DNA from: a candidate division WS6 bacterium OLB20
GTDB lineage: Bacteria > Patescibacteriota > Dojkabacteria > B142 > OLB20
Direction: 5' to 3'
Length of the DNA: 64,000 nt
NCBI GenBank assembly: GCA_001567355.1
Contig: JYNZ01000003.1
Span: forward strand, 678,762 to 742,761
Part shown: positions 14,064 to 56,193 of the stretch, piece after piece
How positions within the stretch are numbered: the stretch's first letter is position 1
Layout of the letters: the number at the start of each line of letters is the position of its first letter
Position numbers and translations under genes: made by a program
The notes under the pieces: model-generated
Database searches by the model: none
Told to the model about the DNA's origin: nothing
The model's input: the letters and a program-made list of their open reading frames with translations, nothing else

Positions 14064-14157
14064 AGCATGAAACTAATAAATATCTGTAAACTTCAGCTGA
14101 AGGTATGATCTAGCAGCCGAAGTAAAAGTATGAACGTATTATAGCATGAAACAGTAA

Positions 14158-14185
14158 GGGCACAGAAACTCTGTGCCCTCAAAAA
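14158..14185 (-). terminator. candidate terminator hairpin downstream of trxA (GGGCACAGaaactCTGTGCCC)
   Basis: 8-bp perfect stem, 5-nt loop. Weak U-tract on the minus strand. Confidence 0.4.
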
Positions 14186-14202
14186 TCAAGTCCGGGTGGT
14201 GT

Positions 14203-14532: not shown

Positions 14533-14563
14533 TACTGGAAGGTGCTGAGAATTAAAATACGGG

Positions 14564-14899: not shown

Positions 14900-14923
14900 G
14901 ATAAACGATGTAAAGTATAGATA

Positions 14924-15280: not shown

Positions 15281-15381
15281 CTGATATTAGTAATAATGAA
15301 TCTTATCCCGATAAGTATGTCACAAACAGCGCAAATTCGCAATTTACCACGGGGCACGGGCGCCTCGAACACTTACCAGTC

Positions 15382-24086: not shown

Positions 24087-26860
24087 ATGTCCGAACCGAA
24101 ACGCTATGTAATCAGTTTAAGTCAGATCCAGGGTCAGCCTGGTGAACTCGTCGGCGATCGCATTCTGCTGCTTAATGAGGTAGATAAACTCGGTGTGCCG
24201 ATACCCACGACGTTTGTAATCACATCGCAGGCGTTTGATGACTTTATAGTGGCCGCAGACCTCGTCAGTTACATCTCCGAACGTATCAATAACGTAGATT
24301 ACACAAAACAGCGGCAGATCAAGCAGAACGCAAGAGAGATCCGGGAGGCGATAATGCGCTCGCCGATGCCCGATATCATAGCCCAGCCTATCGAAAAGGC
24401 ATACTCAGGTATGGGGGGAATGTTTGAGTCGTTTGTGAGTATCAAAACCTCGCCACCGCGTCCCGAACTCAACGAAGTGAATTACGGAGATCGTTTTGTG
24501 CTCGATAATATCAAAGGCACACATGATGTGTTTGCTGCCGTCAAGCAGGCGTGGGCAGAACTGTTTACCGAGGAGGCACTGATTTTTCGCGCATCAGTTG
24601 CGTATGAAGGGTCAATCACCATGGCCGTTGCAATCCAGAAGCTTGTACAGGCAGAGGTCTCAGGCCTGGTGCATACCAAAAGTCCTGCCAGTGAGGGCGA
24701 AATGGAAATTCAGGCTGTCCTGGGACTGTTTGAGGGCGTAGATCGTCTGCAGCTTGTACCCGAAAGCTATTTTTACAACCCCAAAGAGGAAGAGATTACC
24801 GATAAGAAACTTGCCCCGCAGCGTCAGATGCTGGTCCGAAAAGGCAGAGCGGATACCGCAAATGCACTTGCAGAAGTCCCGATCTCAAAGAACTGGCAGG
24901 AGCAGCAGAAGCTTGATGACCGTTTTATTGTCAATCTTGGCAGGATCGGCTCATCCTTGAAAAGTCTCTACGGGGCAGATCTGATCATCGAGTTTGCCTA
25001 CGAGGCGGGGCGTGTTTACATTATGTCGATCATCACCGAGGAGGAGTCACTTGCGCAGCGGGCTACGCTGGAGATTGTAAAAGAAGAGGCGCGACCCATT
25101 CAGGAGTTATATCCGGAACGTCCGGATCTTAAAAAAGGACCGAATGATGCAAACCTGGCACGCATTGAGGGGCACCAGGTCGAAGAGGAGGAACAGCGCG
25201 ATCTCAGTAACCTGGCGCTCGTTGTTGATGAGGAGGAGCGTGAGGAAAAACTCAATCTGATAGCCAACGTCGGACCCGACGACTCGCCTGAACAGCAGAA
25301 GGCTGAGCTGGCAAGGCCTGCGGTCGGACCTTCCGAGGCAGAGCAGAAGGTCGAGCTGACCAGGACCAAGGCAGCACCAGAGGATAAACCGGTTGATGTC
25401 CAGATCTCGCGCCCGCACAGTCCGGTTCAGCAGCCAGTGTCCCAGCCGGGGGTTGAGGTGCACGGACAGGAGGTTGTTGTTGATATCAAACCCTTAACAG
25501 TCCTGGAAAAAATTCTCGGTGGTGTCGGATTCGGCAGTACAGTTCAGTTCGGGCTTGTCCACTTTGTTATGGAGGATACTGACTGGCTCGGTCTGACCGG
25601 TGATGAGATCCTGGTTATTAAAAAGCTCGACGAAAAACGGCTGAAGGAGATCAACAGTGTGCGTGCGGTTGTCCTTGAGGAGCCGCTGCGCGAGGAGCAG
25701 CTGCAGCTCATTAAGGTGCCTGTCATCCATGCTGTAAAAAAATGCCCGTGACGTATTGCGCGAAAATGAAGTAGTAACTATCGACGCACAGCACGGTGAG
25801 GTGCTGCTTGGTGCAGGTAAAAAGCCTGATGATGAGGTTAAGGGGGTCGAGCAGACTGAGGAGCAGCCGTCGCTGGTCGATCCGTTCCCGGTAATCTCAG
25901 AGGCTGATATCATCACAAAAGAAAAAAGACGAGCGTGATCCGGTCCAGACAGGCAGCAGTTTCTGGCAGATACTTGATCCGGCAAAACCGTCAGTTGATG
26001 CATCGCAGTCAGAGGGAGTGGTTGTTGATATGAACGACTTTTACCTCCACGCATCAGTCAATCCCGAGTATCTGCTGGGTGAACCCGAACACAAGCGTTC
26101 ATTTATCAAAGAGGTCGTTGCTCATCTCAAACCGCTGCTTGAACTGCTTGAGAACAAAACCGTTCTTCTCAAGGCGCACGATCTTGATTATGAACATCTC
26201 AGCAAGCTGCAGGGTAATCAGAGCATTGACTTTAACACAAGGCACTTGAGCGGAGCAGGCAAGTTTGTTGCCAATCCCAAACTGCTTGAACTTGAACTTG
26301 AGATTCTGGCGATTCTGCGCAACCGCGAATCACTCAGGAACATCTGGCTTGCTGTCCCGAATGTAAACAGTGCAGATGAACTCACCGAGGTAAAAAAGAT
26401 CATCTCCTCATATGGCTTCAGGCGGTCATCAACATTCAAGCTGTATGCCCTGATAACAAGACCGCTCGGAATGCTTTCGCTTAAGACCATTGTTGACCAC
26501 GAGATTGATGCCGTCGGTCTGGATATCGATAGAATACTGGATAACCTCTTTGGCGATGCGGATTATACGATGACAACGGATATTGCCACCTTTCTGGGCT
26601 GGGCTGTACGCACAATCAACTCCAATAAGTCCCGACCTGTTCTTATGAACCGCAAGCACGATATTGATAAGGAAACTCTGCAGCTGATGGTCGAAAAAGG
26701 TCTGACCGAATTTATCGTCCCCCAGAAGGATCTCTACCAGTCACGACTGCTTGTCTCCAGTATTGAGATCACCAAGGTAACAAAAAGAAGAAACGCGGCA
26801 GAAAGAAGAAAGAGATCGACTACGGATTCTGATATAAATAGGTATGCGTTTTCTGTATAA
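24087..26860 (+). CDS. PEP-utilising enzyme family protein (PPDK_N ATP-grasp domain + long acidic low-complexity insert + phospho-His swivel domain + PEP-utilisers C-terminal TIM-barrel-like domain), split into three ORFs by single-base frameshifts at A7 (25736-25742) and A6 (25922-25927)
   Basis: N-terminus matches the pyruvate phosphate dikinase PEP/pyruvate-binding domain (…VAIQKLVQAEVSGLVHT…). The junction reads …VIHAVKK/NARDVLRENEVVTIDAQHGEV across the A-run (compare TSHAAIVARELGIPAVVG…VTVDG). The third piece has an …LAVPNVNSADELTEVKKII… signature like iMIPMV..eE..e.k. Confidence 0.55.
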
Positions 26861-29800
26861 TCACTGCATAGGCCAACAAGGAATGGATTTTTTGCGACAA
26901 CAGATCATATATCTGCTCGTTCTGATTGTGCTTTTTCAAGGTGTAGTTCTGCTTCCTGCTGCCGGTGTTCAGCCCGCAGAAGCCCAGTCGGTTGAGCGCG
27001 CGCGACAGATGCTTGATACAGATCAGGAGTATGATCTTTCTGCCGTTTTTGTGAAGTACCGTGACGACGAACGTCCGCGCCTGATGCGTGTTGATCCAAA
27101 TGATCGTGCACGTTTCTCGACAGCTGAAGCAGAGATATATTCTGCAGCTCAGATAGAAGAGAAAAAGGGTCAGCTGGAGCGCACTATTGCCCGTCTGCTT
27201 GAGGATCCCCAAGTCGAACATGTCCAGCCCCAGTTTATCTACGAGATCGAGGCATGGACAAACGGTCCGACCCAGGATACACCAAATGATTTTGACACAA
27301 CATCTCCGTTCAATCACTGGTATTACGACAAATCTAAACTGCGCGAGCTCTGGGATGACCAGAACTGTGCCACGGGTGGAGGAACCTGCGGAGGCAGCAG
27401 TAATGTGACTGTTGCGGTGATCGATACAGGTCTCGCATTTGAAAATTACAACAGCCCCTGGGGTGATAACTTCCGCGTAAATCAGGTCCTCGCAAGTTCG
27501 ACTGCGACAGCAGCATCAACCGGAAATAACCTTGTTGCGTCATCGGCGATATTTGTCCCTTCGATGGTCGGCAGGCTGATTTATAACGGTGCGGATGACA
27601 CGTATGCTGAGATCACTGCTGTAGGAGGCAATCCGTCCTCATCAGCAACAGTCGAGCTGTACCCCTCCGGCAGTCCGATAGGCGAGACTTTTGATAATGA
27701 TGCGATCGACGTTCTGGGAACAGGCAGTGACATGTTTACATACGGTGCTCCTGTAGATGATGCTGAAGCACTGCCAATGATCAATATGTATAAAAACGAG
27801 CTTGAGATTCCGAACAATGGGCTCGATGACGATGATAACGGCTACATCGATGATGTTTTTGGCGTAAACACAGCTGATTATATTTACTGTAACTTTATTG
27901 CAAGCTGCAGTGCTGCAGAAGAGCGCAGCATCGGTCATCCTAACGATGACGGCGGCCACGGCACATTTGTCAGCGGGCTGATTGCTTCAATTGTAGATAA
28001 TAACTTCGGCAGTGTTTCTCCTGCACAGAACGTATCGCTGATGCCTATCAAGGCTTCGTTTTTTCATTCGCGTTCTCTCGGTTCACTTGAGATATGGTAT
28101 GCCGTTGATTATGCTGTCACGCATGGTGCAGACGTGATCAATATGAGTTTCTCGGGTCCTGCAGAAGACCCCGGACTGACAGAAAAAATCGCCTGGGCAA
28201 ATGACAATGGGGTCACCGTTGTCGCTGCGACAGGCAACTCCGCGGCAGCTGTTGAATGGCCCTCCAAAGCCGCCGGCGCTATCGCTGTCGGTGCTGCAAA
28301 ACCAAATGATGAACGTGCGTTTTATTCCAACTACGGCCCGGAGCTGGATGTTGTCGCGTATGTGGGTAATGGTGCAGGTGTCGGCGATACAGCCTACCAG
28401 CGATCCTATACCTGCTTCTTCGCGAGTCCCAACTGCTATACCAGCAACCAGTACAATTCATTCTCAAACGGTTACGGCATCGGTACTTCATATGCGTCTC
28501 CGCAGGTTGCTGCTCTTGCCGCGCTGCTGCGTTCGGCCAAGCCAGCGATTACACCGGACGGGATCAGGGCAAGCATCAGACAGTATGCTATGGATATCGG
28601 CACTCCGGGATTTGACAACGAGACCGGGTACGGTGCTATCGATTTTCAGGCAACATACAACGGTGTTCTGAATAATGTTGCTCCATCATTTCAGATATCA
28701 GAGCCGAACGGTCTGGCGGACAATGCTGATATGTCGTTTACCCTGAGCTGGACAGATTCAGATCCTGATGATGATGCCCGTATCACACTGTACAGGGATA
28801 CAAACGACAGCGGATTTGACGGGGTACCGATAGAGGAATGTTCCAACATGTCAGAAAATTCGGCAACGGACAGCTGTAATTTTGACACCCGCGGTCTGCC
28901 GGCGGGCAGCTATTACATATACGGATGCATCAGTGACCAGATCAATGCCCAGTCTGCGACTACGGCAGCGGGCCTGTAACTGTGTCACATACAGTCATCC
29001 GTGACTACGGAAAACTCGGTGTCTCGACAACACCGGTCAGAGTCAATTTTAATCAGACGTTTACCGGACCTCCGATTGTACATGCGACAGTTACAGCCGA
29101 ATATGGCGGTGACATGGTCTATGTAAATGTCACAAACATCACCAATACCGGATTTACAGTGGCCCTGCAGGAGAACACACTGAGCGGATATAACGGTCTG
29201 CATTTTCTCGAAGAGGTGAGCTGGTACGCAGTGTCAGCGATCAGCGCCAGTGAAAAGGTGGGCGCGACAATTCTTAATACTGAATGGAAGCAGATAACAT
29301 TTGATTCGGCGTTCGGTTCGGTACCAAAGGTGTTCGCCTTTGTACAGTCAGAAAACGGCGCTGACCTGGTGTATGCTGATATCCGCAACCGTACCGTCAG
29401 CGGTTTTGAGATGCGACTCGAGGAGCCACTGCCGTATGACGGCACTCACACAAACGAGACAGTCGGATGGATTGCGTTTGTAACTCACCCTCTGGGTACC
29501 GTGCAGTCCGGCACGGCGACCGGAGACAGCAACTGGACTCCGGTCAGTTTTCCTGTCGCATTTGCGGATCCGCCCGTGCTTATCTCGGATATTGTTACTG
29601 AGAACGGTTCTGACCAGGCGATAGTTGATATCCGTAACCTCACGGGAACCGGTTTTGAGTTCAGAATCGAAGAGGATCCGTTTACCCATAATGTCGCGCA
29701 TTTTGATGAGACAGTCAGCTGGATGGCGGTCACCCGGACAGCTCCTTCAAGTGTGTTCGAGAAGATTTCGTTAAACCATGAGTGGACGTATGTTCCATTT

Positions 29801-30547
29801 ATGGATGTCTTTGAGAACACTCCGTATGTATTTGCAGATGTATCAACCGAGAGCGGCAGCGATACAATCGAGGTTGATATCCGGGGCGTCTCTCCCGTCG
29901 GGTTCAGCGCCCGCATCGAAGAGGATACAAGAGGCGGCTGGGATGGAACGCACAATCTGATCGAGACTATCTCGATCACTGCTGTTGACCCGGTAGTAAG
30001 TCCCTACGACACAGGAACGGTTAACCTGGCAAATAATGACACATGGGTTCCGGTTAATTTTGGTGGTGTGTACGCCCAGCCGCCCAACGTATTTGCGATG
30101 ATACAGACAGAGTTCGGTGGAGACACAGCAGAGATTGATATCCGTAATGTCACAACAACAGGCTTTGAGATCCGGCTTGAAGAGGATGTGCTCTTAGGCT
30201 GGGATGGTTTTCATGCATCAGAGCAGGTGGCATGGATGGCGCTGGACAGTACAACTCCGTTGACAGGGCAGACCGGAAGACTCGTGATAGACCAGACGGT
30301 AGCAAAAAACCAGGTCTGGCATAATGTCACATTCCCGTCACCGTTTTCTGCAGTACCGAATGTTCTTGTTGAGATCAATTCCGAGAATGGTGGTCATACT
30401 GTGCAGGCGGACATCCGCAATCTGACTGTAGGCGGATTCCAGGTCAGGCTCGAAGAGGAGCCGAATATCTATGACGGGACCCACATCCCCGAAACTGTTG
30501 TCTGGTTTGCAAACGGTAACACTTATTCTATTACTCTTTCTCCCTGA
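26844..30547 (+). CDS. secreted subtilisin-like (S8) serine protease fused to six tandem lectin-like (H-type-lectin-like) ~85-aa repeats; split by a frameshift in 28937-28976 (CCC run 28948-28950). Likely true start at 26883 (MDFLRQQ…)
   Basis: S8 catalytic triad motifs VAVIDTGLAF (Asp), HGTFVSGLIAS (His), GTSYASPQVAALAALL (Ser). Signal peptide. The repeat consensus is W..V.F...F...P.V.A.IQTENGGD.A.VDIRN.T.TGF..R.EED…dG.H..E.V.W.A. Homology with the downstream paralog runs straight across the stop. Confidence 0.75.
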
Positions 30548-33500
30548 TGAAGTATCTCTACGCGCTGCTTTCGTTTCTGATGATCGTACCTTTTGTACCA
30601 GTGACAGAGGTCAGGGCGCAGAGTGAGGAGGCTTCCGGTTCAGAGTTTTCAATCTCGTCTGCTCCGGCCGGCGCCGAGAAAAGTCTGGACAGTTTTGTCG
30701 TTACATTCAAGGATGAGCGCGGTTCAAAAGCCGTACACTTAAGTGGTGATGTTCCGGATACCCTGCGTACCAGTGAGACGCCGGGGTTTTTTGCAGCAGC
30801 GATGGAGTCGGGACTGGAGCGCAAGATGGACGAATACCGCAGGCGTGACGATGTTGCTTCTGTTCAGCCGAACTACATTTACAGAACAGCAGCCTGGAAG
30901 GTCGACTTTGCAAATGAAGTTGCCAACCCCTGGGATTATGGAATGGGTCCCGACGGGAACAGCCCGCTGTCAGGACAGCACTGGTACTACGAGCTCGGCG
31001 GAATCCGGGGTATGTGGTACGAGCAGGGGTGTGGAATGGGTGACCCCGACTGCGGTGGTGACCCGGATGTGACGGTTGCCGTGATCGACACGGGACTGGC
31101 ATTTGAAACTTACACAGCTCTTCTGCGAGGAGACTCTTATGCTCCCTTCCCCGGAATGTTTGACGGTGCCAAGAGGATAAGCCTGTATGAGAATATCGGT
31201 GAGGAGCCGACCGATCCTTCACCAAACAAAAATGTCAACAAGGTTGATGATGACAGCAACGGCTATCGCGATGACTACAATGGTCTGGATGCATGGGTAT
31301 ATGACTTCTGTTATCCGGTTGAGGTTGATGACCCGCCATGCACAAACCAGGAGTGGGGAGACGAGGGCCACCCGAATGATGATGTCGGGCACGGCACATT
31401 TGTAACTGGCCTCATAACAACACTGATTGATGATAATAACAACAGTCCTGTCGACTACGACAACAGTATCTCACCTGCTCACAATGTGACGATACTTCCA
31501 ATCAAGGCCAATTTTCCGCAGAGCAATTCGTTCTCGACATCCAGTCTGATCGCGGCAATAGATTACGCAATCTATGCGGATGCTGATGTGATCAACATGA
31601 GCCTGTCAGGCGGTATTGATGACAGCGCTCTGCATGCAAAGATTCAGGAGGCCGACAGCGCAGGTATTCTGGTGGTGGCAGCTTCGGGTAACAATAATTC
31701 TGCAGTAGGTTATCCTGCCCGCTACTCTGAAGTATTTGCGGTCGGTGCCGTCAACAGTAACAAATCACGTTCCTGCTACTCAAACTATGGAGCCGAGCTG
31801 GATGTTGTCGCCTATGTCGAGGATGGCGATGATACGTTCAGCTGCTACAGCGCCTCACGGACATTTGGAAAAGGAACGGCTGTCTGGCAGGGCAGTTTCC
31901 CCTGCTTCTTCAGCGATACGTGCGACGGCCTTGGCGGGGACTTTCTTAACTTTTCGATGGGACACGGTGTCGGGACATCCTTTGCAGCTCCCCAGGTGGC
32001 GGCGCTTGCTGCCGTGATACTCTCGTTTGAACCTGGCTTTTCAAATGCTCAACTGAGATCATACATCGAGGACAACGCAGACAACAGTGTCGGAATTGCC
32101 GGTGATGATGTGCTGACAGGACAGGGTGCCATTAATTTCAATGATGTGATGGAGGATATTAACGGCCTGCAGGGTGACGGCGTTCCATCCATTACAGTCA
32201 CTGATCCGGTTGGTGATAATGACAGCGCTGATACAACCTACACTGTAACCTGGGACGGAACCGATCCTGATACAGCAGAAGGCAGTATGCGCCTTAATTT
32301 CTTCCTCGACTCCGACACAAGCATGGTGTCATATATCGCCCCCCTGCCGGGATGTCAGGATGCCGATATTTCAACCGTATTAGGTTCGGGGCAGACATGT
32401 ACTGCCAATCTTTCCGGTTTTCCGAATGGTACGTATTATCTGCTCGGCTGCATCCGTGACGCATTCAGTACAAGCTGTGACCACAGCGGTTCGCTGACCG
32501 TCGGTAATTCTGATGTATCTGACAGCGGAATCACCATGGCTACAGTTGACGGCTGGAAGACGGTGAATTTTTCAACTTCATTTTCAACACCACCCGTTGT
32601 GATTGCAAACGTCTCAGACGAATACGGATCTGATATGGTCTATGTCGAAGTCCGCAATGTCACGACCGGCAGTTTTGAGGTGCTGCTCCGGGAGAACACA
32701 CGGACGGGATACAATAATCTGCACACACCGGAGGAGGTAAGCTGGTTTGCTGTTCAAAACTCCACAGACGAGATCCAGGTCGGCACCGTCGATATCGAAC
32801 GCAACCTTTCGGGCTTCAATCCTGACGGCTGGATCTGGGTTGATTTTCCGGTTGCATTTGCGACAACACCTGATGTGTACGTTACTGCCCAGGAGCAGGC
32901 TGGCGGGGATCTTGAATACGCTGACATCCGTAACGTCTCCACAACACGGTTTCAGATCCGTATGGAGGAGGCACCCGGCTATGACGGCAATCACTGGCCT
33001 GAGACATACGGATGGGTAGCCATGGAAAGTTATTCAGGCGCTGATCGCTCGGGGACCCTTTCTGCCGTAAATCACAACTGGCAGACAGTTACGTTCTCTC
33101 CGGCACTTACATATCTTCCAGCGGTCATTGCCGAAATCCAGTCAGAGAACGGCGGTGACAGCGCGCAGGTTGATATCCGTAACCTGTCCAGTACAGGATT
33201 CCAGATCAGGGTCGAAGAGGATCCGCTTTATTATGATCCCTTTCACGCGAACGAGCAGATCAAATGGTTTGCAATTGAACAGACACCTGATCTTTCATAC
33301 CTGCTGGGGACAACTTCTGTAACGCACAATAAAAACACTGTTGTGTTCGATAAGCCGTTCCCGGTCACACCAGCCATCATTGCAGACATTCAAACCGAAA
33401 ACGGCGGTGACACATCCGAGGTCGATATCCATCAGGTCTGGCGTGGAGCGTTTACGCTCAGGATTGAAGAAGACCCGAAACTGTGGGATGGCGGACATAC

Positions 33501-34094
33501 AGCAGAGACCGTCGGATATCTGGCCTATCCGCTGATGGATACCGCTGATAATCAGGAGATATACAGCGGGACCGAATTCGGATTTACGTCTGCCAATCAG
33601 AACTGGGTTCCAGTCACCTTTGAAAGCTCGTTCTCTTCGGTCCCGAAAATTTTTGCCACAATCCAGACTGAATTTGGCAGTGATACCGCAGAGGTCGACA
33701 TACGTAATATTACACAGACAGGTTTTGAAGTGAGGGTCGAGGAGGATGTGTTTGCAGGCTGGGATGGCAATCATGCCTTTGAGCGTATTGCATGGGCAGC
33801 GTTCGAAACACCGTTCAACGGTGATGCAGGGCTTGTGAGTCTTGAGCTCACCGGTATCGGTAATAACAGATGGGTTACCCTTGACGGGTCGACGACCCTG
33901 ATGCGTATGGACCCTTTGGCAGTGCGCCGGTTATCTTTTACGAGGTAAACTCCGAAAACGGCGGTCAGACCATCCAGGGTGACATCAGAAACGTCGGGCA
34001 GACATCGGTTGACGTATCGGTAGAAGAGGAGCGCAACTATGATCAGGTTCACTTCAGTGAGGATCTGGTCTGGTGGGCACTGATGGTTATTTAG
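30547..34094 (+). CDS. second paralogous S8 subtilisin / six lectin-like repeat protein (~1180 aa); last repeat displaced by a frameshift in 33885-33945
   Basis: Same S8 motifs (VAVIDTGLAF, HGTFVTGLIT, GTSFAAPQVAALAAVI). After the annotated stop, a further repeat (…FGSAPVIFYEVNSENGGQTIQGDIRNVGQTSVDVSVEEERNYDQVHFSEDLVWWAL) reads in the +2 frame to 34094. Confidence 0.75.
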
Positions 34095-34112
34095 ACAGTT
34101 AGATGAGGGGAT

Positions 34113-35654
34113 ATGACACAAAAGCAGACAATCACAGCAGCTGTCTGTGCCATCTGCACAGTCATATCCCTGGTGGTCTTCGCAGGACAGCGGCACACTG
34201 AGCCGGATGTGTCAGACAGGACGACTGAAACAGTCACCACAGATGATCCCGTTGCAGCTGACAGCAGTAAGATCGCCGGAACTTCGGCTACTGTAACTGT
34301 AACGGCAAGTGTAACTCCCGAGGTCTCACAGGCTGCAGAGGTAACCCGGAGACCCGTAGTCCCGCAGGGAGCAGAACGGACGCCGCAGAGAATCACGCCA
34401 CCTGTCCAGACTACTGACACAGGCAGCGGATCTGACACCAGCTATTCTCTCGGATCGCTCAGCGGCAGGAGGATTCATCAGTTCAGCTTTTCACAGCCGT
34501 TTACCGCTCTTGGTTTTTCATGGTCGGATGGTTCGTTTGAGTATTCCCTTGACGGTGTAGTTTTTAAGAGTCCATCTTTCAGCGATGAGCACAGGCCTGA
34601 CGGGGGAACCTACAAAAAGGCGAGTGATCTGATCTTTACTGACCGGTCACTGTCACAGCTGTTTATACGAGCTGATCAGGTACAGGGACTTGAGGTTCAT
34701 ACGATCCAGCCTGAAGCAGCTTCAGTACAGACAGCTGCCGCGACACAGAATTACACAGGAGCTCTGTTTACAACGCAAAATATCATTTCGAGAGAAAACT
34801 GGGGTGCCGATGAAAACCTTGCACCCTGGAATCCACGCTACGGTCCCGTAAGCAGACTGATTGTACATCACACTGCCGGATCTAATACTGCTACCGACTG
34901 GGCGGCAGTTGTACGGTCGATTTTCACGTATCACGCTGTATCACTGGACTGGGGTGATATCGGCTATAACTACCTGATTGATCCCAATGGAGTCGTTTAC
35001 GAAGGACGAAAAGGAGGAGACGGTGTGACAGCAGCGCACGCGTATCTGCATAATTACGGCAGCATCGGGATCTCTATGATAGGTACGTATTCCGACGGAC
35101 TGCCGACCGATGCCGCGCGGGCATCCCTGCGCAGGCTGCTTGCCGAAAAGGCCGAGGTACATAATCTCCCGCTTGCATGGGCCTCCACGGTTTACGGACA
35201 TCGCGATTTTAACAGTACCAGCTGTCCCGGAACGACACTGTACAACCAGATGCCTGTACTAACCGCAGCAGCAGATGGTGAACGTCTTGCAAATATGACG
35301 GATGTAGCAGCTGCCACTGAGGCAACAGAGGACGCCTTTGCAGACTGGTTTGCACAGACAGGACAGACGTACGGGGATCTGATCGTCACGTTCAATTACC
35401 CTGTAAGCAGTCCGCCATCGACGATAGCTGCACTCATTCCACCATACAGCGGAATAGAGGTCAGGGGGGTCGGCGGCAACAAAGCATACCTCAGGCTTAA
35501 CCGATATTATGACGAACTGGGTGAACCGATGCTGTTCCGCACCAGGTTTCTGCATACGTATTTCTCACTGAGACCTGATGTGACGTCGGTTGAGATATCG
35601 GGTGAGTATACAATCCTGCCGATTACTGTTGACCAGACTGGACAGGGGAACTGA
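34113..35654 (+). CDS. membrane-anchored N-acetylmuramoyl-L-alanine amidase (Amidase_2 / PGRP domain) with ~230-aa N-terminal extracellular region
   Basis: IVHHTAGS…DWGDIGYNYLIDPNGVVYEGRKGG…AAHA…YGSIGISMIG…GHRDF…TSCPG is the Amidase_2/PGRP zinc-amidase signature. N-terminal TM. Confidence 0.8.
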   Translation: MTQKQTITAAVCAICTVISLVVFAGQRHTEPDVSDRTTETVTTDDPVAADSSKIAGTSATVTVTASVTPEVSQAAEVTRRPVVPQGAERTPQRITPPVQTTDTGSGSDTSYSLGSLSGRRIHQFSFSQPFTALGFSWSDGSFEYSLDGVVFKSPSFSDEHRPDGGTYKKASDLIFTDRSLSQLFIRADQVQGLEVHTIQPEAASVQTAAATQNYTGALFTTQNIISRENWGADENLAPWNPRYGPVSRLIVHHTAGSNTATDWAAVVRSIFTYHAVSLDWGDIGYNYLIDPNGVVYEGRKGGDGVTAAHAYLHNYGSIGISMIGTYSDGLPTDAARASLRRLLAEKAEVHNLPLAWASTVYGHRDFNSTSCPGTTLYNQMPVLTAAADGERLANMTDVAAATEATEDAFADWFAQTGQTYGDLIVTFNYPVSSPPSTIAALIPPYSGIEVRGVGGNKAYLRLNRYYDELGEPMLFRTRFLHTYFSLRPDVTSVEISGEYTILPITVDQTGQGN

Positions 35655-36504
35655 TCTTATTAGGAACGTTGTAGTCCCAGAAGCGGGCATTCTGATTAAA
35701 CGCCTGATCCTCAAAATTGCGGAAGTAAACTATCTCGTACTCCGGTGATACTTTTATCTGAACTATGGTTTCAACCAGCTGGTTGAATTCATTAACCTTT
35801 TCGCTGCGTGCGGTCAGGATGCGTACCTGCGAGACACCACGCTGCTCGTACTCTGATGTTATTGTCTGCTGCTGCTGCAGCAGGTCAACAATATCCAGAA
35901 GCTCTGTCTGACCTGAGGGTGTGACGGTCCTTGTCTCCCATACTGGCGACCCCGAGGGTGATGAATTGAAGTACTGGCGGTTGCCGATGGTAATGGTGGC
36001 GCTTGCGCCGTTAAAGGTATACAGCTCCGGGCAGTTGGGGGGAAAGTAACGTGCCGTGTATTTTTTGTCAGGTGCGATGCCTTCGTTATAGTACCCGTAG
36101 CAGGTTGTGGACCGCAGGTCACTGTAGTCGCCCGACGCTTTGTAATAGGTTACGGCCTGTAATTCCTGTTTAAGTGTATTCAGAAAATCGCGTGCTTCGC
36201 AGTCCTGAAAACATTTCAGTAGACGTGCACGCTCCTCGTCGGGAGACTCGGTTACGATCGGTGTTGCTGTCGCGGTTGCTGTGGCTGTCGGAGTCGGAAC
36301 AACAGGTGCAGGAGTGCTGCGCTGTGAAAGAGCGCCGATAACACCGCACAGCAGAAGAACGTTACCGATGGCACTGAAGATCAGCAGTGATTTCAGATAC
36401 GACGGATCGTTGAAAATGCTTTTAAGCGTAATTCCCCCTCCTGTAGAAGGTCCCAGGATCTGTTGCTGAATTACGGGATCGGTAACCGGAGCACTAGCAG
36501 CCAT
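35623..36504 (-). CDS. hypothetical membrane-anchored extracytoplasmic protein (Thr/Pro/Ala linker, several Cys)
   Basis: ORF with one TM helix. No family recognised. Confidence 0.4.
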   Translation of the reverse strand: MAASAPVTDPVIQQQILGPSTGGGITLKSIFNDPSYLKSLLIFSAIGNVLLLCGVIGALSQRSTPAPVVPTPTATATATATPIVTESPDEERARLLKCFQDCEARDFLNTLKQELQAVTYYKASGDYSDLRSTTCYGYYNEGIAPDKKYTARYFPPNCPELYTFNGASATITIGNRQYFNSSPSGSPVWETRTVTPSGQTELLDIVDLLQQQQTITSEYEQRGVSQVRILTARSEKVNEFNQLVETIVQIKVSPEYEIVYFRNFEDQAFNQNARFWDYNVPNKISSPVQSGQQ

Positions 36505-36636: not shown

Positions 36637-39549
36637 GTGACTTGTCCTGAGTACGGCGTTCCTGTAAGCGCTGTTCTTTACTATACTGGTTATGTGAAAA
36701 CGAAAAAAACTGTCCAGGAACGAGACACCGGTTTAGATATGGCACGCGGCATTGCTGTGCTGCTTATGCTGTTTGCCCACAGTGTAGTATTCTTCAACTT
36801 CAATCAGAATCCGCTGTTGCGGATCATCGGTCAGTTCGGGGATATCGTTGTATTTTCAACATTTCTGTTTATCTCGGGTGCGGTTTCTTATGTCGCCTAT
36901 CTTTCAGTATCAGAAACAACCTGGAAGCAGAAGCGGGGCAGACTGCTCGCCAGGGCAGGACGTCTGCTGCTTGTATACTACCTTATCGGGATAATCGGCA
37001 GCTACAAGTACTGGCAGGGTCTGCCGGTCACCTCATTACCCCGGATACTCTTTGAGATACTCACGTTTACGCAGGTTCCCTCATACAGCGAATTCCTGAT
37101 CCCGTTTATTCTTTATGCGGTACTGTTTCTGTTCTTCCGCGGTCTGTACCGTGCAGCTGCAGAGAGTACCTGGATGGCTGTTCTGGTTAGTGTTATCGCA
37201 TACTCACTCGGCAGTATCATTCATGCGACAGTCACGCAGCTGCCTGCAGGGTTTTATACATCGTTCATTGCCGGATATTCTGACTGGTTCAGGTTCCCTG
37301 TTCTCCAGTATACGCCAGTACTGATAGCGGGCATGTACTGGAGTGCTCGTACAAAATCAGCAACTGCTGCAGGAAAGGCATGGCTGGCATTTATCTGGAC
37401 AGCCATGTGGGTGTTTATCATTATCGCATTCAATTTTAATGCCTACACGACGTCGGCTGACACAGTGGTCTATGAGCCGGGTATCTACTACTATCGCTGG
37501 CCGCCGTCAATCCAGTTTCTGATAATCGGGATTGCCTTCGCCTCTCTGGCGATGCTCGTGGTACAATTAGTCAGATCGATAGACAGGGCAGGCGTTGTAC
37601 AAGGTCCGTTGACTTTTATCGGAGCCAACGCATTCGGGTTTTATTTCTATCACATTGTTCTGCTGTACCTCTACAGGTTTGCGTTCAACAGAAGAATTGA
37701 AAACCCTTTTGCAGTAGTCGCACTCTGGCTCCTGCTTGTAGCGTTCTGCACAGCCCTGATATACCTTGTCCGTATCCTGCACTACCGTCTGCATATTGAT
37801 AAGCTACATACACGTATGAGCGAGCTGCTTAAGGGAAGAAAATCTGTTCTGCTTGTTGCTGCTGCAGCACTGTTCTTTTTACTGGTCTTTTCCTTTAATA
37901 CGATCGCGACAACAGCACCCAGATTTGAACAGGCATTCCCTCCAACTGATCCGGAGGTTGAAGGTATCTTCTTACGCACTGCAAATCCTGTCTGGTGGGA
38001 CAGCACCTACAAGTATCACCGCCGGCTCACGATCGAAAATAATAATGCCGATGTCACTGCACAGCGTGATACGCAGGCAGAGTTCAGTTTTGACCACTCA
38101 GCACTCGTAGAGCAGGGTAAAAGCCTTGCTGATGGTAGCGATCTGCGACTGATTTACTTCACGGGTGAAGGCTACCGCGTACTTTCTGCTGCTGCCTCAG
38201 GACTTAATACTTCTCAAGCCGTTATCCGTTTTCCGCTTGTCCTTGAGGTACCGCCGCTGACATCTGATGATTATTATTTCCTGTACTACGGCAATGACAG
38301 TGTATTGAGCGCGTTTAGCGAGATTCCGCAGAACGCGGCAGCACAGGTGGGGACTGTACTCGGTGAAGAAAAAGTAGCAGCTATCACTGTCTCGCTCCCG
38401 CGAAAGTGGCTGCTGCGGGGACAGGGGCTTACCGAAGAGCACACGCAGATGCCATTTACCGTTGATCTTGGTGACATCAACATCAGCGGTGATGAGGTCA
38501 GGGTTGCTGTACAGGGCCGAGAGATTAAATCGCTGACTGCCTCCAGGACAAGGGACAATCTCTTCACTGTGATGCTTGACGGCAGTGATTTTCAGCCCGG
38601 CAGGTATACACTTGTGGCCAGCACTCCTGATGGTGCGTTTGAGAGCGCAACGACAGAGTTTAATGTCTCCTATCCGCTCTATGTGACCTGGAGCATCGAC
38701 TATGAGGGTTTTGATGTCAGCAAGCAGTACCTTGATGCGATGATCGCTATATCGGAGAAGTACGACATGCCGGTTACACACCTGTTCAATCCACGTATCT
38801 TTATTGCCGGTGAAGTCAGCAGGGCTCGTGCGTCAGAACTTGTAGCCTGGGTCCTTAACCGCGAAACGCAAGGAGATGAGATCGGACTGCATCTTCACAT
38901 GCACACCGACATGGTCCGCGCTGCCGGTCTGACTCCCCATGAGGAGCCACGGTGGGGCGGTCGTGTTAACGGTCATGATGTTCTGACAACAAACTATAAT
39001 TACCAGGAGTTTGATCAGCTGATCAAATGGAGTCTTGATCAGTTCTCAAAAAACGGTCTTCCCAGACCGATCACCTTCAGAGCTGGCGGGTGGTTTATTG
39101 ATGAGGAAAATCTGCAGGTCCTTGCCGATAACGGTTTCAGAGTTGACACATCGGGACGTGAGTTTCTGATTTACGGTCCCAATGAGATCCCTCATGTCTG
39201 GAATCTTGAGATCACAACCCGGCCGTTTAAACCGTCAGTTAGCGACCAGAACTCGGATACACCTCCTCAGATTGATATCTGGGAATTCCCTAACAACGGA
39301 CTTGATTCCACCAACAACCCGGGTAGTTTCCTTATTGACCGGTTTAATGCAAACTATACGGGCGGAACATTACGCGAGGCACAGACTGTATCGTATATGA
39401 GTCACCCGCACTGGTTTAATATCTACGATAATCCTAAAATGTATGCACTGCTGGATCATGTCGAGAATTTTGCATTCAAGAACGACAAGGGTCCCGTACT
39501 ATATGTTACACACGAACAGGCCCTCAGGGGCTGGGAACTCCCGACATAA
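36637..39549 (+). CDS. fusion protein: acyltransferase-3 (OafA/YrhL-like, ~10 TM) N-terminal domain + beta-rich middle region + CE4/NodB-like polysaccharide deacetylase-like C-terminal domain
   Basis: DMARGIAVLLMLFAHS…GDIVVFSTFLFISG (Acyltransferase_3 start). C-terminal WSIDYEGFD / HLHMHTD / ITFRAGGW resemble CE4 motifs TFDDG / HxxxH / RxPxG. Confidence 0.55.
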   Translation: MTCPEYGVPVSAVLYYTGYVKTKKTVQERDTGLDMARGIAVLLMLFAHSVVFFNFNQNPLLRIIGQFGDIVVFSTFLFISGAVSYVAYLSVSETTWKQKRGRLLARAGRLLLVYYLIGIIGSYKYWQGLPVTSLPRILFEILTFTQVPSYSEFLIPFILYAVLFLFFRGLYRAAAESTWMAVLVSVIAYSLGSIIHATVTQLPAGFYTSFIAGYSDWFRFPVLQYTPVLIAGMYWSARTKSATAAGKAWLAFIWTAMWVFIIIAFNFNAYTTSADTVVYEPGIYYYRWPPSIQFLIIGIAFASLAMLVVQLVRSIDRAGVVQGPLTFIGANAFGFYFYHIVLLYLYRFAFNRRIENPFAVVALWLLLVAFCTALIYLVRILHYRLHIDKLHTRMSELLKGRKSVLLVAAAALFFLLVFSFNTIATTAPRFEQAFPPTDPEVEGIFLRTANPVWWDSTYKYHRRLTIENNNADVTAQRDTQAEFSFDHSALVEQGKSLADGSDLRLIYFTGEGYRVLSAAASGLNTSQAVIRFPLVLEVPPLTSDDYYFLYYGNDSVLSAFSEIPQNAAAQVGTVLGEEKVAAITVSLPRKWLLRGQGLTEEHTQMPFTVDLGDINISGDEVRVAVQGREIKSLTASRTRDNLFTVMLDGSDFQPGRYTLVASTPDGAFESATTEFNVSYPLYVTWSIDYEGFDVSKQYLDAMIAISEKYDMPVTHLFNPRIFIAGEVSRARASELVAWVLNRETQGDEIGLHLHMHTDMVRAAGLTPHEEPRWGGRVNGHDVLTTNYNYQEFDQLIKWSLDQFSKNGLPRPITFRAGGWFIDEENLQVLADNGFRVDTSGREFLIYGPNEIPHVWNLEITTRPFKPSVSDQNSDTPPQIDIWEFPNNGLDSTNNPGSFLIDRFNANYTGGTLREAQTVSYMSHPHWFNIYDNPKMYALLDHVENFAFKNDKGPVLYVTHEQALRGWELPT

Positions 39550-39555
39550 TCTGAT

Positions 39556-41652
39556 ATGACAGCAAGACTATTCATCGATAACGGAATAGACTTTGAGTAT
39601 ATGATTCTGCTTGCAGGAGGACTTATTCTGCTGCTCATTATTCTGAATGTACTTGTTCTGCTGAGACGCTATCTGCACACAAGGGGCAGAACGCTGACTC
39701 CCGTTTTCCTCCGTTCTGTCAGGCAGGCGTTCAAGAACATCCTTCGCAGAGCAGTGCCGGCAGTCGTCCGCAGGCGCAGAAGCGGAATTTTGCGCGGTAC
39801 GGTCGTTGTGATAAACAGTTTTGCTGCTGCTGTTCTGATGGTTGCCCTGTTTGATCTGTTTCAGGGGCCGGGCATACGAGGTCACTATCCGGCAGTTGAA
39901 GGAAAGCTGCAGAATTATGAAGAACCGATCACAATTGAGTTTGACCGTGCGGTTGATACCACTGAATTCCAGCCCTATATCTTCCCCGAGATTGATGGTG
40001 AATGGCGGGCCGAGCCCGAATATGACTGGATGCCGGGGATCAAGCGCAAGGTGGCGTTTTATCCGAAAGAGTCGATGTTTCCGGGTAAGGTGTTTATCTA
40101 CTATGCAGAGGTTACTGACAGTCTGAAACTTCAGGAGAAGTGGGAATACGGTATCAATGCCTACAGTGTTCCGGTGCCGGCAGTCAGCAGTGTCTCCCCT
40201 GAAAAGGGTTCTGAAGATGTCGGTGTTGACCGCGAGCTGCAGTTTTATCTGGATAACGAGACCGGCGACTTTATCGAATGGAGCTTTGAAATTTCGCCCG
40301 ATGTATCAACCCAGCTGTACCAGTCTGATGCAAAGACAATTAACGTGCGGTTTGAGTCACTGCTGGCACAGAATACTGAGTACTCCTACAAGCTACGCAG
40401 AACTCCGGTCCGGTACCGTCTGGATAGCGGAGAGGTGATAGACCGTGGAGAAACATCCGTCGCCACAGAAGGATCATTTAAAACCGTTAAGGAACCGCTG
40501 CTTGAATCGATCCACCCGAGCGGTGAGGGTGTTTACATTACTGATTCGATCAAGGTTGTTTTTGATCAGGAGATGGAGCAGCAGTCGGCACAGGAGGCGT
40601 TCCGTATCGCGCCTGAGGTTGCAGGTACGTTTTCATGGGAAGACAGCAGGACGATGATTTATGACCCCGGGCAGAACCTCGCAAAGGAAACAAAGTATAC
40701 CGTAACCTTAAAACAGGGGATTCGCAGTCTTAAGGGTGGTTTTACCGGCAAGGATGTAACGCATGAGTTTACAACGATCGGGGCGGTCACAGCAGGATTT
40801 TCACCGGGCGGCAGCAGTGTGGATACGGCTGCCAACATCTCTGTCTATTTCAATCAGCCGGTTGATAAGGCCAGTGCCGAGTCAAAGTTTTCGATATCGC
40901 CGTCGGTACCCGGTTCAATCTCCTGGAACGGTAACACACTGACATTTAATCCATCCTCTGATCTTGCGTTTTCAACCGTCTATACTGTCAGGGTTGATGC
41001 AGGTGTAAAAAGCATTAACGGCATCGACTCGCGCACGCAGTTCAGCAGGTCGTTTACAACCGAGGCACAGGTGTTCCGTCTTAATGTGCCGGTGTATTAT
41101 CAGAGCCTGAGGTTCTCCTGCAATCTGGTTGCCGCGCGGATGGCTCTGGCTTATCGAGGGATTTCTGTCTCGACACTTGGTGCTCATTCGCAGATAGCAA
41201 AAGACAACACACCATGGAATCCGGATGCGAATACATGGGGCAATCCGCATGCGGGTTATGTGGGCGATATCTATGGCAACCAGGAGGGATACGGTGTCTA
41301 CTGGGGACCGCTGTCCAGCTGGATGTCTGGATACAGATCCAACGCTGTCAGAGTAGGCTGGAGCAGAACGCAGATGCTGCAGGCTGTGCAGGCGGGTAAC
41401 CCCGTGATCATCTGGGCACATAACGGTTACTCAGGCTCAGGTGCAAACAGGTCGTGGACGACGCCTGGCGGCACAAATATTTACGCGATCCAGGGAATGC
41501 ATTCCTATGTGGTTGTAGGCTGGGTTGGACCGATCGACAATCCCTCACAGATTATCCTTAATGACCCCAACCGTGGTCGCTGGACGATCTCTACAGGCTA
41601 CTTCGACGCACTCTGGTCATACTTCGGCAGAGCATCGGTCGTTGTCTACTGA
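39556..41652 (+). CDS. membrane-anchored protein with bacterial Ig-like (SbsA-type) repeats and a C-terminal peptidase C39-like domain
   Basis: N-terminal TM helices. Repeated ~90-aa Ig-like segments (…VSSVSPEKGSEDV…, …IHPSGEGVY…, …FSPGGSSVDTAANISVYF…). C-terminal VPVYYQSLRFSCNLVAARMALAYRG…NPVIIWA…MHSYVVVGW…DPN (Cys/His of the C39-like fold). Confidence 0.6.
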   Translation: MTARLFIDNGIDFEYMILLAGGLILLLIILNVLVLLRRYLHTRGRTLTPVFLRSVRQAFKNILRRAVPAVVRRRRSGILRGTVVVINSFAAAVLMVALFDLFQGPGIRGHYPAVEGKLQNYEEPITIEFDRAVDTTEFQPYIFPEIDGEWRAEPEYDWMPGIKRKVAFYPKESMFPGKVFIYYAEVTDSLKLQEKWEYGINAYSVPVPAVSSVSPEKGSEDVGVDRELQFYLDNETGDFIEWSFEISPDVSTQLYQSDAKTINVRFESLLAQNTEYSYKLRRTPVRYRLDSGEVIDRGETSVATEGSFKTVKEPLLESIHPSGEGVYITDSIKVVFDQEMEQQSAQEAFRIAPEVAGTFSWEDSRTMIYDPGQNLAKETKYTVTLKQGIRSLKGGFTGKDVTHEFTTIGAVTAGFSPGGSSVDTAANISVYFNQPVDKASAESKFSISPSVPGSISWNGNTLTFNPSSDLAFSTVYTVRVDAGVKSINGIDSRTQFSRSFTTEAQVFRLNVPVYYQSLRFSCNLVAARMALAYRGISVSTLGAHSQIAKDNTPWNPDANTWGNPHAGYVGDIYGNQEGYGVYWGPLSSWMSGYRSNAVRVGWSRTQMLQAVQAGNPVIIWAHNGYSGSGANRSWTTPGGTNIYAIQGMHSYVVVGWVGPIDNPSQIILNDPNRGRWTISTGYFDALWSYFGRASVVVY

Positions 41653-54010: not shown

Positions 54011-56193
54011 ATGTACCAGACCAGAATAAGCCTAAAAAAACGACGTATCAGCAGCGGATCAGGCAGATCAGTCAGATCGGGCCGTGCTCTGCGCGTCCGG
54101 CGCAGAATGCGCAGACGTGAAGTCAGAAACAGTGTTTTTGCCGGTTTCAGCGTGACTGCGGTTGCCGGCTTTTGCATGTCGCTTGTGGCTGGTCTGTTTC
54201 TGCTGTCGTTTCTTCAGGTCGTGTCCCAGGATCTGCCCACGCCCGAAAAACCTTTTGGAAAAAAAGCTACAACAAGCGAAATCTACGACCGAAACGGCAA
54301 TATCCTGTATCGGGTTTTTGACGATGAGGACAGAGATCCTGTCCGGTTAAACGAGGTCCCGCCGCTCGTCAAGTGGGCATTCATTGCGGCCGAAGATGCG
54401 ACATTTTATGAGCATCACGGCATAGACCCCGCAGCAATGGCTCGCTGTGCGCTCAGGATGCTGGATGGAGACGACAACATCTGCGGTGGTTCAACCATTA
54501 CGCAGCAGCTGATCAAAAAGACTGCACTGACAGACGAGGTAAATATGGAGCGTAAGCTGAAAGAGATCATCCTGGCGCTTAAGATCGAGCAGGACCGTTC
54601 AAAAGATGAGATTCTCGAGATGTATCTGACAGTTGTGCCCGAAGGCAGCAATATTTATGGCATAACCCGGGGATCTCAATTTTACTTCGGCAAGGATCTG
54701 GACGAGCTGTCACTTGCCGAGATCTCAATCCTTGCTTCAATCCCGCAGAATCCAAGCAGGCTGTCCCCGACAAAATCACTTGTTCCGGAGAAAGCGCAGG
54801 CCCTGCTGCGTGAGAGGCAGCTCTACGTTCTTGATCAGATCGAAAAAAACATGGATCGCATCAACAGTGCCGCCTACCAGGATACTGGTTCTGATAAGCC
54901 GCTGGTGACTGCGGAGATGATCGAAGAGGCGAGAGGTGAAAAACTGGTCTTTAAACAGCCGCGCTTTGAGATCAATGCACCACATTTTGTCTTTTACGCT
55001 CAGCAGCTGCTGCAGGAGCGCGGATACAATAATGGCAAGCCCTTTGATCTGTCGGAGATTGAGACAGAAGGTCTGCGGATCTACACCACACTTGATATGG
55101 AGCATCAGCGTGTGGCTGAGGATCAGGTGCGTAAAGCCGTCGACAGATACGGCACACGCTATGGAGCAGATAACGCCGCAATGGTATCACTGGATCCGGA
55201 CACCGGAGAAGTGCTTGCCTATGTCGGATCATACAACTACTTCGGTGAGGCAAAGCCGGCCGGGTGCCGTCTGGGGCAGACATGCACCTTTGAGCCACAG
55301 GTCAGTGTTCCGGGCACCCTGCAGTCATACGGATCTACTCTGAAACCGATAATCTACTATAAAGCATTTATGGACGGGCTGATTGAGGCCGACAGCGTCA
55401 TTCCCGATGTGCCCATCCAGATCGGCTCCTATAAACCCAAAATTACGAGGGCAGGTTTTACGGACTCAAAAGCGCCCGCTGGATGCTGATCAACTCGCGC
55501 AACATTCCGGCAATAATGCTGACTGACCAGATCGGAACACAAAATGTTGTTGCAGAACTGCAGAAATGGGGTTACACAACATTTGATGATCCAAACCGCT
55601 TTGGGCCTGCAATCTCGGTTGGCGGCGGTGACGTGAGGCTGATCGAACATGCTCAGGCGTATGCTGTGTTTGCCAGCGGCGGGATGTACAATCGGCATGA
55701 GGTTATCAGCAGAATTGAAGATGTTGATGGCAATGTGTTGTACGAATACAAGCCCCAGCCACAGCAGATAGCAGACCCTCGCGGGATCTACCTGGTTAAC
55801 GATATTCTTAACGGCAAAAAGGGTGGTGTCGGATATAGCTTTGACGGACGCGATATTGCCGGAAAAACCGGAACATCAGAGAAACAGACCGAAACACTCT
55901 TTGTGACGTATACACCTGAAATCGTTGCAATCGGATGGCTCGGCAATAATACAAACAAGGGTATGGTCTATGGTGCAACAGGCTATACGTCTGCCAGGCC
56001 ATGGGTCTCGGAGTACGTCCAGCGCATGGGAGACAAAATTCCTGCCACCGCATTTAAACGTCCTGAAGGTGTCTACTATAACAGTAAGGGCCACCTTGCA
56101 ATCCGGGGCATCGCAGCACCGCTAAAAGTGAGCGTCCCCCGTCAGTACCGGCCGGGCGATGTCTTAAGTCTCGACAGCCACTACGCACGCTGA
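54011..56193 (+). CDS. class A penicillin-binding protein (transglycosylase + transpeptidase; PBP1A-type), split by a 1-nt frameshift at 55436-55442 (CCCAAAA)
   Basis: GT51 motifs (AAEDATFYEHHGID, GGSTITQQL). Transpeptidase SxxK (GSTLKP), SxN (reads ...PQNYEGRFYGLKSARWMLINSRNIPAI across the shift), KTG (IAGKTGTSE). Confidence 0.85.

Follow-up and report, generated by a model that had tools for sequence, protein, structure and literature searches.

Gene layout of the locus

A 64,000-nucleotide (nt) stretch of contig JYNZ01000003.1 (hereafter the window) was analysed from the Dojkabacteria (candidate division WS6) bacterium OLB20, a member of the candidate phyla radiation whose genome comes from an anammox reactor. 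Three adjacent genes on its forward strand form a block: two paralogous genes in tandem, S8A and S8B (genes 1 and 2), which encode secreted subtilases that each end in six H-type lectin repeats, and a third gene, which encodes a membrane-anchored amidase of the peptidoglycan recognition protein (PGRP) type. Conserved gene order and natural fusions of these parts make the block a candidate lectin-guided module for degrading cell envelopes.

The raw open reading frames (ORFs), all on the forward strand, were 26844..28979 (711 amino acids, aa), 28982..30547 (521 aa), 30547..33948 (1133 aa) and 34113..35654 (513 aa). After correction of one base in each protease gene, the features of the block were as follows.

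26844..30547, forward strand: gene 1 (S8A), secreted subtilase with six H-type lectin repeats, 1234 aa after one-base correction (ORFs, frame analysis, Pfam)
27399..28634, forward strand: Peptidase_S8 domain of gene 1, aa 186-597 (Pfam 1.4e-38; motifs VIDTG, GHGTF, ATGNS, GTSYASP)
about 28950..28956 (near 28952-28955), forward strand: frameshift site of gene 1, one base missing (three-frame translation, family consensus)
28991..30544, forward strand: six H-type lectin repeats of gene 1, corrected aa 717-1234
30547..34094, forward strand: gene 2 (S8B), paralogous secreted subtilase with six H-type lectin repeats, 1182 aa after one-base correction
31066..32124, forward strand: Peptidase_S8 domain of gene 2, aa 174-526 (Pfam 3.8e-40)
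32512..34091, forward strand: six H-type lectin repeats of gene 2, the sixth (33888-34091) in another frame than the first five
33886..33888, forward strand: frameshift site of gene 2, GGG in the sequence where the organism probably has GGGG (frame analysis)
34113..35654, forward strand: membrane-anchored PGRP-type N-acetylmuramoyl-L-alanine amidase, predicted, 513 aa (Pfam, PGRP matches in the PDB, transmembrane prediction, ortholog alignment)
34839..35231, forward strand: Amidase_2 catalytic domain, aa 243-373 (Pfam 1.4e-19; PGRP alignment)
35370..35612, forward strand: C-terminal beta-alpha-beta-beta-alpha-beta domain of the amidase, aa ~420-500 (AlphaFold2 model, Foldseek, hhalign)

The corrected protease lengths agree with the ~1230 and ~1180 aa that an earlier reading of the DNA, made without database searches (the sequence-only reading), had proposed for the tandem paralogs. 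The likely true start of gene 1 is Met14 at 26883, where the alignment with the intact 1227-aa ortholog of the Dojkabacteria locus L002 begins, in two frames. The stop codon of gene 1 and the start codon of gene 2 overlap (TGATG, the A being shared by the TGA of gene 1 and the ATG of gene 2), only 18 nt lie between the end of gene 2 and the amidase gene, and a convergent gene overlapping the 3' end of the amidase gene closes the co-oriented run. The three-gene block looks co-transcribed. A scan for promoters and terminators returned nothing above chance, no tRNA or Rfam match was found within the window, and the guanine-cytosine (GC) content was flat across the region. Gene 2 is 100% identical to the deposited protein P0001, 'Subtilisin DY' of candidate division WS6 bacterium OLB20, and the deposited OLB20 annotation carries the truncated 1133-aa product of this gene. 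The proteins have also been deposited under the generic name 'S8 family serine peptidase'.

Frameshifts in the protease genes

Three-frame translation joined the first two ORFs into a single gene with a break near 28952-28955. The product of gene 1 reads ...GCISDQINAQS in one frame and CDYGSGPVTV... in the next, and the counterpart in gene 2 reads ...GCIRDAFSTSCDHSGSLTV. Repair to CAG|GTC (GG read as G) gives NAQVCDYGSG, which fits the family consensus NxxVCxYSxG. Gene 2 runs on past the GGG at 33886-33888 into a complete sixth repeat and ends at 34094. Both sites look as if one base of a short homopolymer had been under-called.

IonTorrent PGM reads underlie the assemblies of the OLB genomes, whose authors reported persistent frameshifts, which are common in IonTorrent data (PMC4821891). 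Because of this origin, the similar splitting of other genes in the window and the intact state of all orthologs of the protease genes (1113-1231 aa), the two frameshifts most likely reflect homopolymer errors of IonTorrent sequencing and not biology. Programmed frameshifting was rejected because a slippery heptamer is lacking at both sites and the orthologs are in frame. It is very unlikely that the locus is decaying, with both protease genes and the upstream PPDK_N-like gene being genuine pseudogenes that were each inactivated by frameshifts. Four frameshifts do lie within 24-34 kb and the deposited annotation does hold a truncated product, but past each shift the frame stays open and all family-invariant residues are retained; the homopolymer sites, the acknowledged behavior of the assembly, the class A penicillin-binding protein (PBP) gene that is likewise split elsewhere in the window and the intact orthologs all argue against decay as well. 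The two 'split' genes call for caution in annotation, most likely being IonTorrent artefacts.

The subtilases

Both proteases share one layout: a signal peptide, a propeptide-like region, an S8 subtilase domain, a spacer domain and six H-type lectin repeats. PF00082 matched genes 1 and 2 with 133 and 138 bits against a cut-off of 21.8 (E 1.4e-38 and 3.8e-40), in keeping with the subtilisin domain that had been read in each paralog, and the nearest solved structures were subtilisin DY and BPN' (about 1e-23). The motifs VIDTG, GHGTF, SGN and GTS were present in both genes, and Asp181, His282, Asn382 and Ser478 (gene 2 numbering) were invariant in an eight-sequence family alignment. With the catalytic triad and the oxyanion Asn intact, both subtilases appear to be active; the concern of the sequence-only reading that the triad might prove inactive once the frameshifts were corrected was not borne out. 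The matched S8 domain covers 412 aa in gene 1 and 353 aa in gene 2, a difference of ~60 aa that is due to a Ser/Thr/Ala-rich stretch inserted in gene 1 between the catalytic Asp and the catalytic His.

All three proteins of the block begin with hydrophobic segments, which are signal-like in both proteases. The ~100-aa region between the signal and the catalytic domain ends in V..VQP.YIY, an ending typical of subtilase pro-regions, and is propeptide-like on this basis; Pfam had no match in the N-terminal pro-region of either protease. The catalytic domain is followed by a Cys-containing, Ig-like spacer, in which Pfam likewise had no match. The intermediate domain of ~90 aa described previously is therefore present, although it is somewhat larger (~100-110 aa). 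The C-termini of the lectin-proteases carry no sortase signal.

H-type lectin repeats and triplet arrays

A hidden Markov model (HMM) of the repeat found exactly six copies in each protease, with a period of 83-102 aa and per-repeat E-values of 1e-25 to 2e-36, in agreement with the six tandem repeats of ~85 aa noted earlier. H_lectin (PF09458) matched with 100.6 and 74.6 bits against a cut-off of 24 (E 5.3e-29 for gene 1 and 6.9e-21 for gene 2), and a precomputed PF09458 match was present in all 16 close homologs. A weaker Pfam match of the repeats was to Gp53-like_C, a phage tail fibre domain. One Pro, one Glu and one His were invariant in 80 of 80 aligned family repeats, and a second Glu was present in at least 90%.

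An AlphaFold2 model of the 521-aa ORF that holds six repeats had a predicted local distance difference test score (pLDDT) of 88.9 and a predicted template modelling score (pTM) of 0.83, with six strands per repeat. Foldseek placed the model, with a probability of ~1, with the coral lectin SLL-2, Helix pomatia agglutinin (HPA) and Helix aspersa agglutinin (HAA), and with a probability of ~1 also with the feet of R-pyocin fibres and phage tailspikes. The modelled fold is a six-stranded beta-sandwich like that of HPA and discoidin. The likeness to H-type lectins that had been suggested from the repeat motif was thus upheld, and a non-lectin fold, which would have spoken against it, was not found. 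We infer that the array binds sugar.

Of 15 full-length homologs, 14 have six repeats reaching the exact C-terminus. Repeats that share a position in different proteins were 39-43% identical, and repeats at different positions 29-38%; since same-position repeats are more alike, the array is old and has been kept without homogenisation. A full-library phmmer search with the array (28982-30544) returned 3193 cluster representatives at E <= 1e-3, of which 175 were at E <= 1e-30. Repeats were counted in the 142 array proteins retrieved beyond the first homolog search (P0241-P0382), and 81% had a multiple of three: 19 proteins had three repeats, 77 had six, 18 had nine and one had 12, leaving 27 with other numbers. 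Among 73 six-repeat proteins outside the Dojkabacteria family, repeats i and i+3 were 58-64% identical and other pairs 28-33%. Because repeat i resembles repeat i+3, the duplication unit of these arrays is, by sequence comparison, the triplet.

The known H-type lectins are trimeric, as are the phage and pyocin feet, HPA being hexameric (PMC6363177). The simplest reading of the repeat statistics, together with the pTM of 0.83, suggests that three tandem domains make up a single-chain pseudo-trimer and six make up two. In a sample of 36, related arrays were attached to S8, C25, M10 and M12 peptidases, GDSL lipases, RTX, PKD and other repeats; among the array proteins with a name is a GDSL esterase from Desulfoplanes formicivorans. 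These attachments suggest that H-lectin arrays are a targeting module on secreted hydrolases, which we count in favor of a lectin-guided role for the block.

The amidase

PF01510 matched the product of the third gene with 71 bits against a cut-off of 26 (E 1.4e-19), and its best solved relatives were catalytic animal PGRPs, with E-values down to 1.9e-23. In an alignment to PGRP 4z8i, the zinc ligands His/His/Cys and the catalytic Tyr were conserved, within the motifs HH(T/S)AG, GYN(Y) and GHRD...CPG. The protein is predicted from these residues to be an active zinc N-acetylmuramoyl-L-alanine amidase. It consists of a transmembrane (TM) segment (aa 4-22), a variable linker rich in Thr, Ser, Pro and Val, a conserved N-domain (aa ~105-200), the Amidase_2 domain and a conserved C-domain (aa ~420-500), and its orthologs of 478-519 aa have the same modules. 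The Amidase_2/PGRP zinc amidase with an N-terminal TM anchor that had been read from the DNA alone was thereby recovered.

The AlphaFold2 model of the C-domain (pLDDT 82.8) has a beta-alpha-beta-beta-alpha-beta topology, with the secondary-structure order of a subtilase propeptide. A Foldseek search with this model returned generic ferredoxin-like folds, with the subtilisin prosegment 1spb_P at rank 33. When the region after the amidase in stand-alone orthologs was compared by hhalign with the amidase-to-S8 interdomain region of 17 natural fusions, the two were colinear, with a probability of 79% and an E-value of 1.5e-5. Because of this colinearity, the stand-alone amidase looks like the N-terminal part of the fusion, up to the propeptide. 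Comparison of the C-domain with S8 N-terminal pro-regions by hhalign was not significant, and Pfam I9 had no match in the amidase. On this moderate evidence, the C-domain may be a propeptide-like remnant or a trans-acting module.

Synteny, fusions and distribution

The order S8A, S8B, amidase was kept, with the genes intact, in at least five other Dojkabacteria assemblies: loci L002, L003, L004, L005 (complete genome CP129475.1) and L006, and an ENA contig. In L002-L005 the order is GluRS, transglutaminase-like, PPDK_N-like, S8A, S8B, amidase, a ~290-aa membrane protein on the reverse strand and Acyl_transf_3; in L002-L004 it extends via Big_5/Peptidase_C39_2 to PMT_2, L005 ending before those genes, and L006 and the ENA contig share it up to the reverse gene. 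The S8B of the window is only ~38-45% identical to its homologs in the syntenic loci, yet the order holds. S8A proteins are 53-58% identical to each other and ~40% identical to S8B proteins. The two genes thus form separate orthologous lineages, and therefore go back to an old duplication of which both copies have been retained.

Among the 120 S8 homologs listed, 18 carry Amidase_2 in the same chain. The amidase CPG motif lies ~172 residues before the S8 Asp in 17 of 17 fusions in which both motifs were located. One fusion protein, P0243 (1497 aa), holds Amidase_2, S8 and six lectin repeats in a single chain. P0015 has the same composition, its upstream ORF (TM segment and N-domain) being split off only by a scaffold gap, and its amidase domain is 44% identical to that of the window. 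P0015 is encoded at L001 (9427-13951), where it is annotated without its N-terminus; the upstream ORF enters a run of N just before the amidase domain, and the real protein would be ~1500 aa. This fusion locus lies in an unrelated neighbourhood with MutS, SelR and MscL. Since the fusions have constant spacing and order and the adjacency is conserved, the amidase appears to be part of the same function as the proteases: the fusions are a clear genetic argument, from sequence, that ties amidase and protease to one job. The view of the sequence-only reading that the three genes form one functional module gains support from both the synteny and the fusions.

In a scan of the GTDB species representatives with the eight-sequence family alignment as the query, only Dojkabacteria yielded proteins that combine S8 with six lectin repeats at full length (L005 and L006, with L007 matching in part). 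The S8 domain by itself is widespread in Dojkabacteria, some of which are labelled Saccharibacteria or 'bacterium'. Other paralogs carry FG-GAP/VCBS or PF18885 modules instead of lectins.

Neighbouring genes

The convergent gene downstream of the block (35623-36504, reverse strand; overlap with the amidase gene 32 nt) encodes a 293-aa protein that is conserved, has a single TM segment and a linker rich in Pro, Thr and Ala, had no match in Pfam and keeps its position in all syntenic loci. It is followed at 36637-42716 by envelope genes that are kept in most syntenic loci: a 970-aa Acyl_transf_3/OpgC-like O-acyltransferase with DUF2334, a 698-aa Big_5 plus Peptidase_C39_2 protein, and an ortholog of the PMT_2-like glycosyltransferase, for which Pfam had no match in this window. 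A division and wall cluster lies at 6015-18976 (sigma-70, sortase, FtsZ, FtsA, FtsQ-like, a 608-aa Mur ligase and a FemAB-family transferase).

Several neighbouring genes are themselves broken. The PPDK_N-like gene directly upstream of gene 1 (24087-26860) is spread over three frames (24087-25736, 25744-25836 and 25943-26812), and its orthologs are single intact ORFs of 865-909 aa. The class A PBP gene (54011-56193) is split at ~55483-55489, probably by another IonTorrent indel: ORF 54011..55489 holds Transgly and positions 2-76 of Transpeptidase, and ORF 55483..56193 holds positions 99-265 of Transpeptidase. A VirD4/TrwB-like coupling ATPase (DUF87, TrwB_AAD_bind) is encoded at 56772-58817. 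The adjoining DHH/DHHA2 ORF (59039-59827) has TTG as its start codon, and its Pfam alignment begins only at model position 41; the gene may likewise be truncated or frameshifted.

Proposed function and alternative explanations

We propose that the block encodes a lectin-guided envelope-degrading module, and the target that we favor is the wall of another cell, either a host to which OLB20, with its reduced genome, would attach or dead cells in the granule; we give this proposal an even chance. The subtilases would be exported via their Sec signal peptides and probably mature by removal of the N-terminal propeptide. Beyond the Ig-like spacer, the six lectin domains would most likely pack as two single-chain pseudo-trimers, and the array would dock the protease multivalently on a glycan-decorated surface, such as a wall polysaccharide, a teichoic-acid-like polymer or a glycoprotein layer. 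The amidase would be held at the surface of the producer by its TM anchor and long flexible linker and would cut stem peptides off peptidoglycan, so that protease and amidase could act on the same substrate. In related Dojkabacteria with the fusion, the chain (TM segment, N-domain, amidase, propeptide, S8 and six lectins) may process itself at the propeptide and give the same two kinds of product that are encoded separately here. The envelope would be opened, and peptides and wall fragments would be released. Three points favor a foreign wall: the proteases would be released, binding modules are swapped within the family, and the repeat's nearest relatives in bacteria and phages recognise other cells. 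For Saccharibacteria, lectin-like pilins and host wall polysaccharides have been implicated in host binding (PMC11623550).

Several observations weigh against this proposal. In profile searches of 12 and 80 repeats against PDB sequences, the match to solved lectins was marginal (E ~0.9 for HPA) and covered the N-terminal half only, and the residues of the N-acetylgalactosamine (GalNAc) site of HPA could not be mapped onto the repeats from this N-terminal-half profile alignment. The propeptide nature of the amidase C-domain draws on a generic fold and the hhalign probability of 79%. We know of no host of any Dojkabacteria. The two remaining points, the tether of the amidase in the membrane of its producer and the crowd of the organism's own cell-wall and division genes in the neighbourhood (FtsQAZ, Mur ligase, FemAB, class A PBP, the Acyl_transf_3 O-acyltransferase, the PMT_2-like glycosyltransferase and sortase), would both suit remodelling of the producer's own wall equally well. 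The amidase and the lectin-anchored proteases would then act on the producer's own peptidoglycan and wall-associated proteins, possibly in daughter-cell separation, wall turnover or surface-protein processing, with the arrays bound to a glycopolymer of the same wall. The wall-binding repeats of Gram-positive autolysins offer an analogy for such binding, and vertical inheritance at a fixed chromosomal position in several genomes fits a role of this kind. Against it stand the absence of an anchor on the proteases, which would be released; the variety of C-terminal binding modules among paralogs (H_lectin, FG-GAP/VCBS, PF18885), more typical of varied external targets; the receptor-binding tips that are the nearest bacterial and phage structural relatives of the repeat and recognise other cells; and the unrelated neighbourhood of the L001 fusion. 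We regard an own-wall role as a serious, if less probable, explanation; the sequence-only reading, too, had named both another cell's surface and the organism's own wall as targets.

It is improbable that the proteases are feeding enzymes that scavenge nutrients while tethered to glycoproteins or exopolysaccharide of the biofilm or granule, with the adjacent amidase unrelated to them. OLB20 lives in the core of anaerobic granules and has limited biosynthesis (PMC4821891), and H-lectin arrays occur on many kinds of secreted hydrolase, lipases and metallopeptidases included; an unrelated amidase, however, is at odds with the recurrent amidase-S8 fusion of constant spacing and order and with the conserved adjacency of the two genes. 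The likeness of the repeats to phage and pyocin feet raised the further reading that they are receptor-binding proteins derived from a phage or tailocin and mark the tail-fibre region of a prophage. Gene context effectively excludes this origin, which was rejected: no phage genes lie nearby, the neighbours being GluRS, transglutaminase-like, PPDK_N-like, acyltransferase and other housekeeping or envelope genes; the GC content does not change; the proteins begin with Sec signal peptides and subtilase domains; and the locus is syntenic across species.

Novelty and significance

Literature searches (S8 with H-type lectin, PF09458 in bacteria, and lectin, amidase or subtilisin in the candidate phyla radiation) returned no description of an S8 protease with an H-type lectin array, of amidase-S8 fusions or of triplet-based single-chain H-lectin arrays. 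The component families are well known, and their combined architecture is uncharacterised. The sequence-only reading had said as much, and this part of its claim stood. Tandem H-lectin arrays on secreted hydrolases do, however, occur commonly in metagenomes, and the proteins had already been deposited.

To our knowledge, little has been learned about the means by which bacteria of the candidate phyla radiation recognise other cells and exploit them, except in cultured Saccharibacteria, and the block is a conserved candidate for such a function in Dojkabacteria. An expressed lectin array could serve as a probe for its glycan, and hence possibly for the host. The tandems of H-type lectin domains that are common in environmental bacteria, mostly in threes, point to an uncharacterised single-chain pseudo-trimeric design on many secreted hydrolases. 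We put forward, tentatively and with some doubt, that the arrays are two covalent pseudo-trimers that mimic the hexameric snail agglutinin and form a widespread, unstudied glycan-targeting module, which in Dojkabacteria would steer a protease-plus-amidase weapon to the wall glycans of a specific host. If so, the block would be a host-range determinant and feeding device of an uncultured lineage of the candidate phyla radiation.

Comparison with known systems

The wall hydrolases of Vampirococcus and Bdellovibrio resemble the block in proposed function only, as secreted wall hydrolases used on the envelope of another cell by a reduced-genome bacterium (PMC8080830); they belong to other enzyme families, targeting by a lectin array is not described for them, and Dojkabacteria have no known host. 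The receptor-binding feet PA0620, LKA1 gp49, AP22 gp53 and phi297 share the position of the repeats at a C-terminal tip and a proposed recognition of surface glycans of the target bacterium (PMC6363177), and phage tailspikes pair the domain with an enzyme that breaks down the envelope of the target. These feet are homotrimers with one domain per chain, carried on a virion or tailocin, whereas the repeats here form a tandem array on a Sec-secreted subtilase, encoded on the chromosome with no phage genes nearby.

The H-type lectins (HPA, discoidin I/II and SLL-2; PF09458) are matched by the repeats above the cut-off of the Pfam model, and their known members are trimers or, in one case, a hexamer, as the arrays here appear to be built from triplets. 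They are free, single-domain subunits that oligomerise, whereas here six domains lie in one chain, on a protease; the sequence similarity of the repeats to the solved members is marginal, and those come from animals or slime moulds and not from a bacterium of the candidate phyla radiation.

With amidases of the PGRP and T7-lysozyme type (Amidase_2), the third protein shares the zinc ligands and the catalytic Tyr, catalytic animal PGRPs being its best match. It differs in its N-terminal membrane anchor and long linker and in its extra conserved N- and C-terminal domains, and in sister lineages members of its family are joined to the N-terminal side of a subtilase. Secreted multidomain subtilases (MEROPS S8A; subtilisin DY/BPN' and fervidolysin-like) share with the two proteases the S8A catalytic domain (about 1e-23), a signal peptide, an N-terminal pro-region and C-terminal accessory domains. 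In the proteases described here, the accessory module is a six-fold H-lectin array, and members of the family have a peptidoglycan amidase as a partner or in the same chain.

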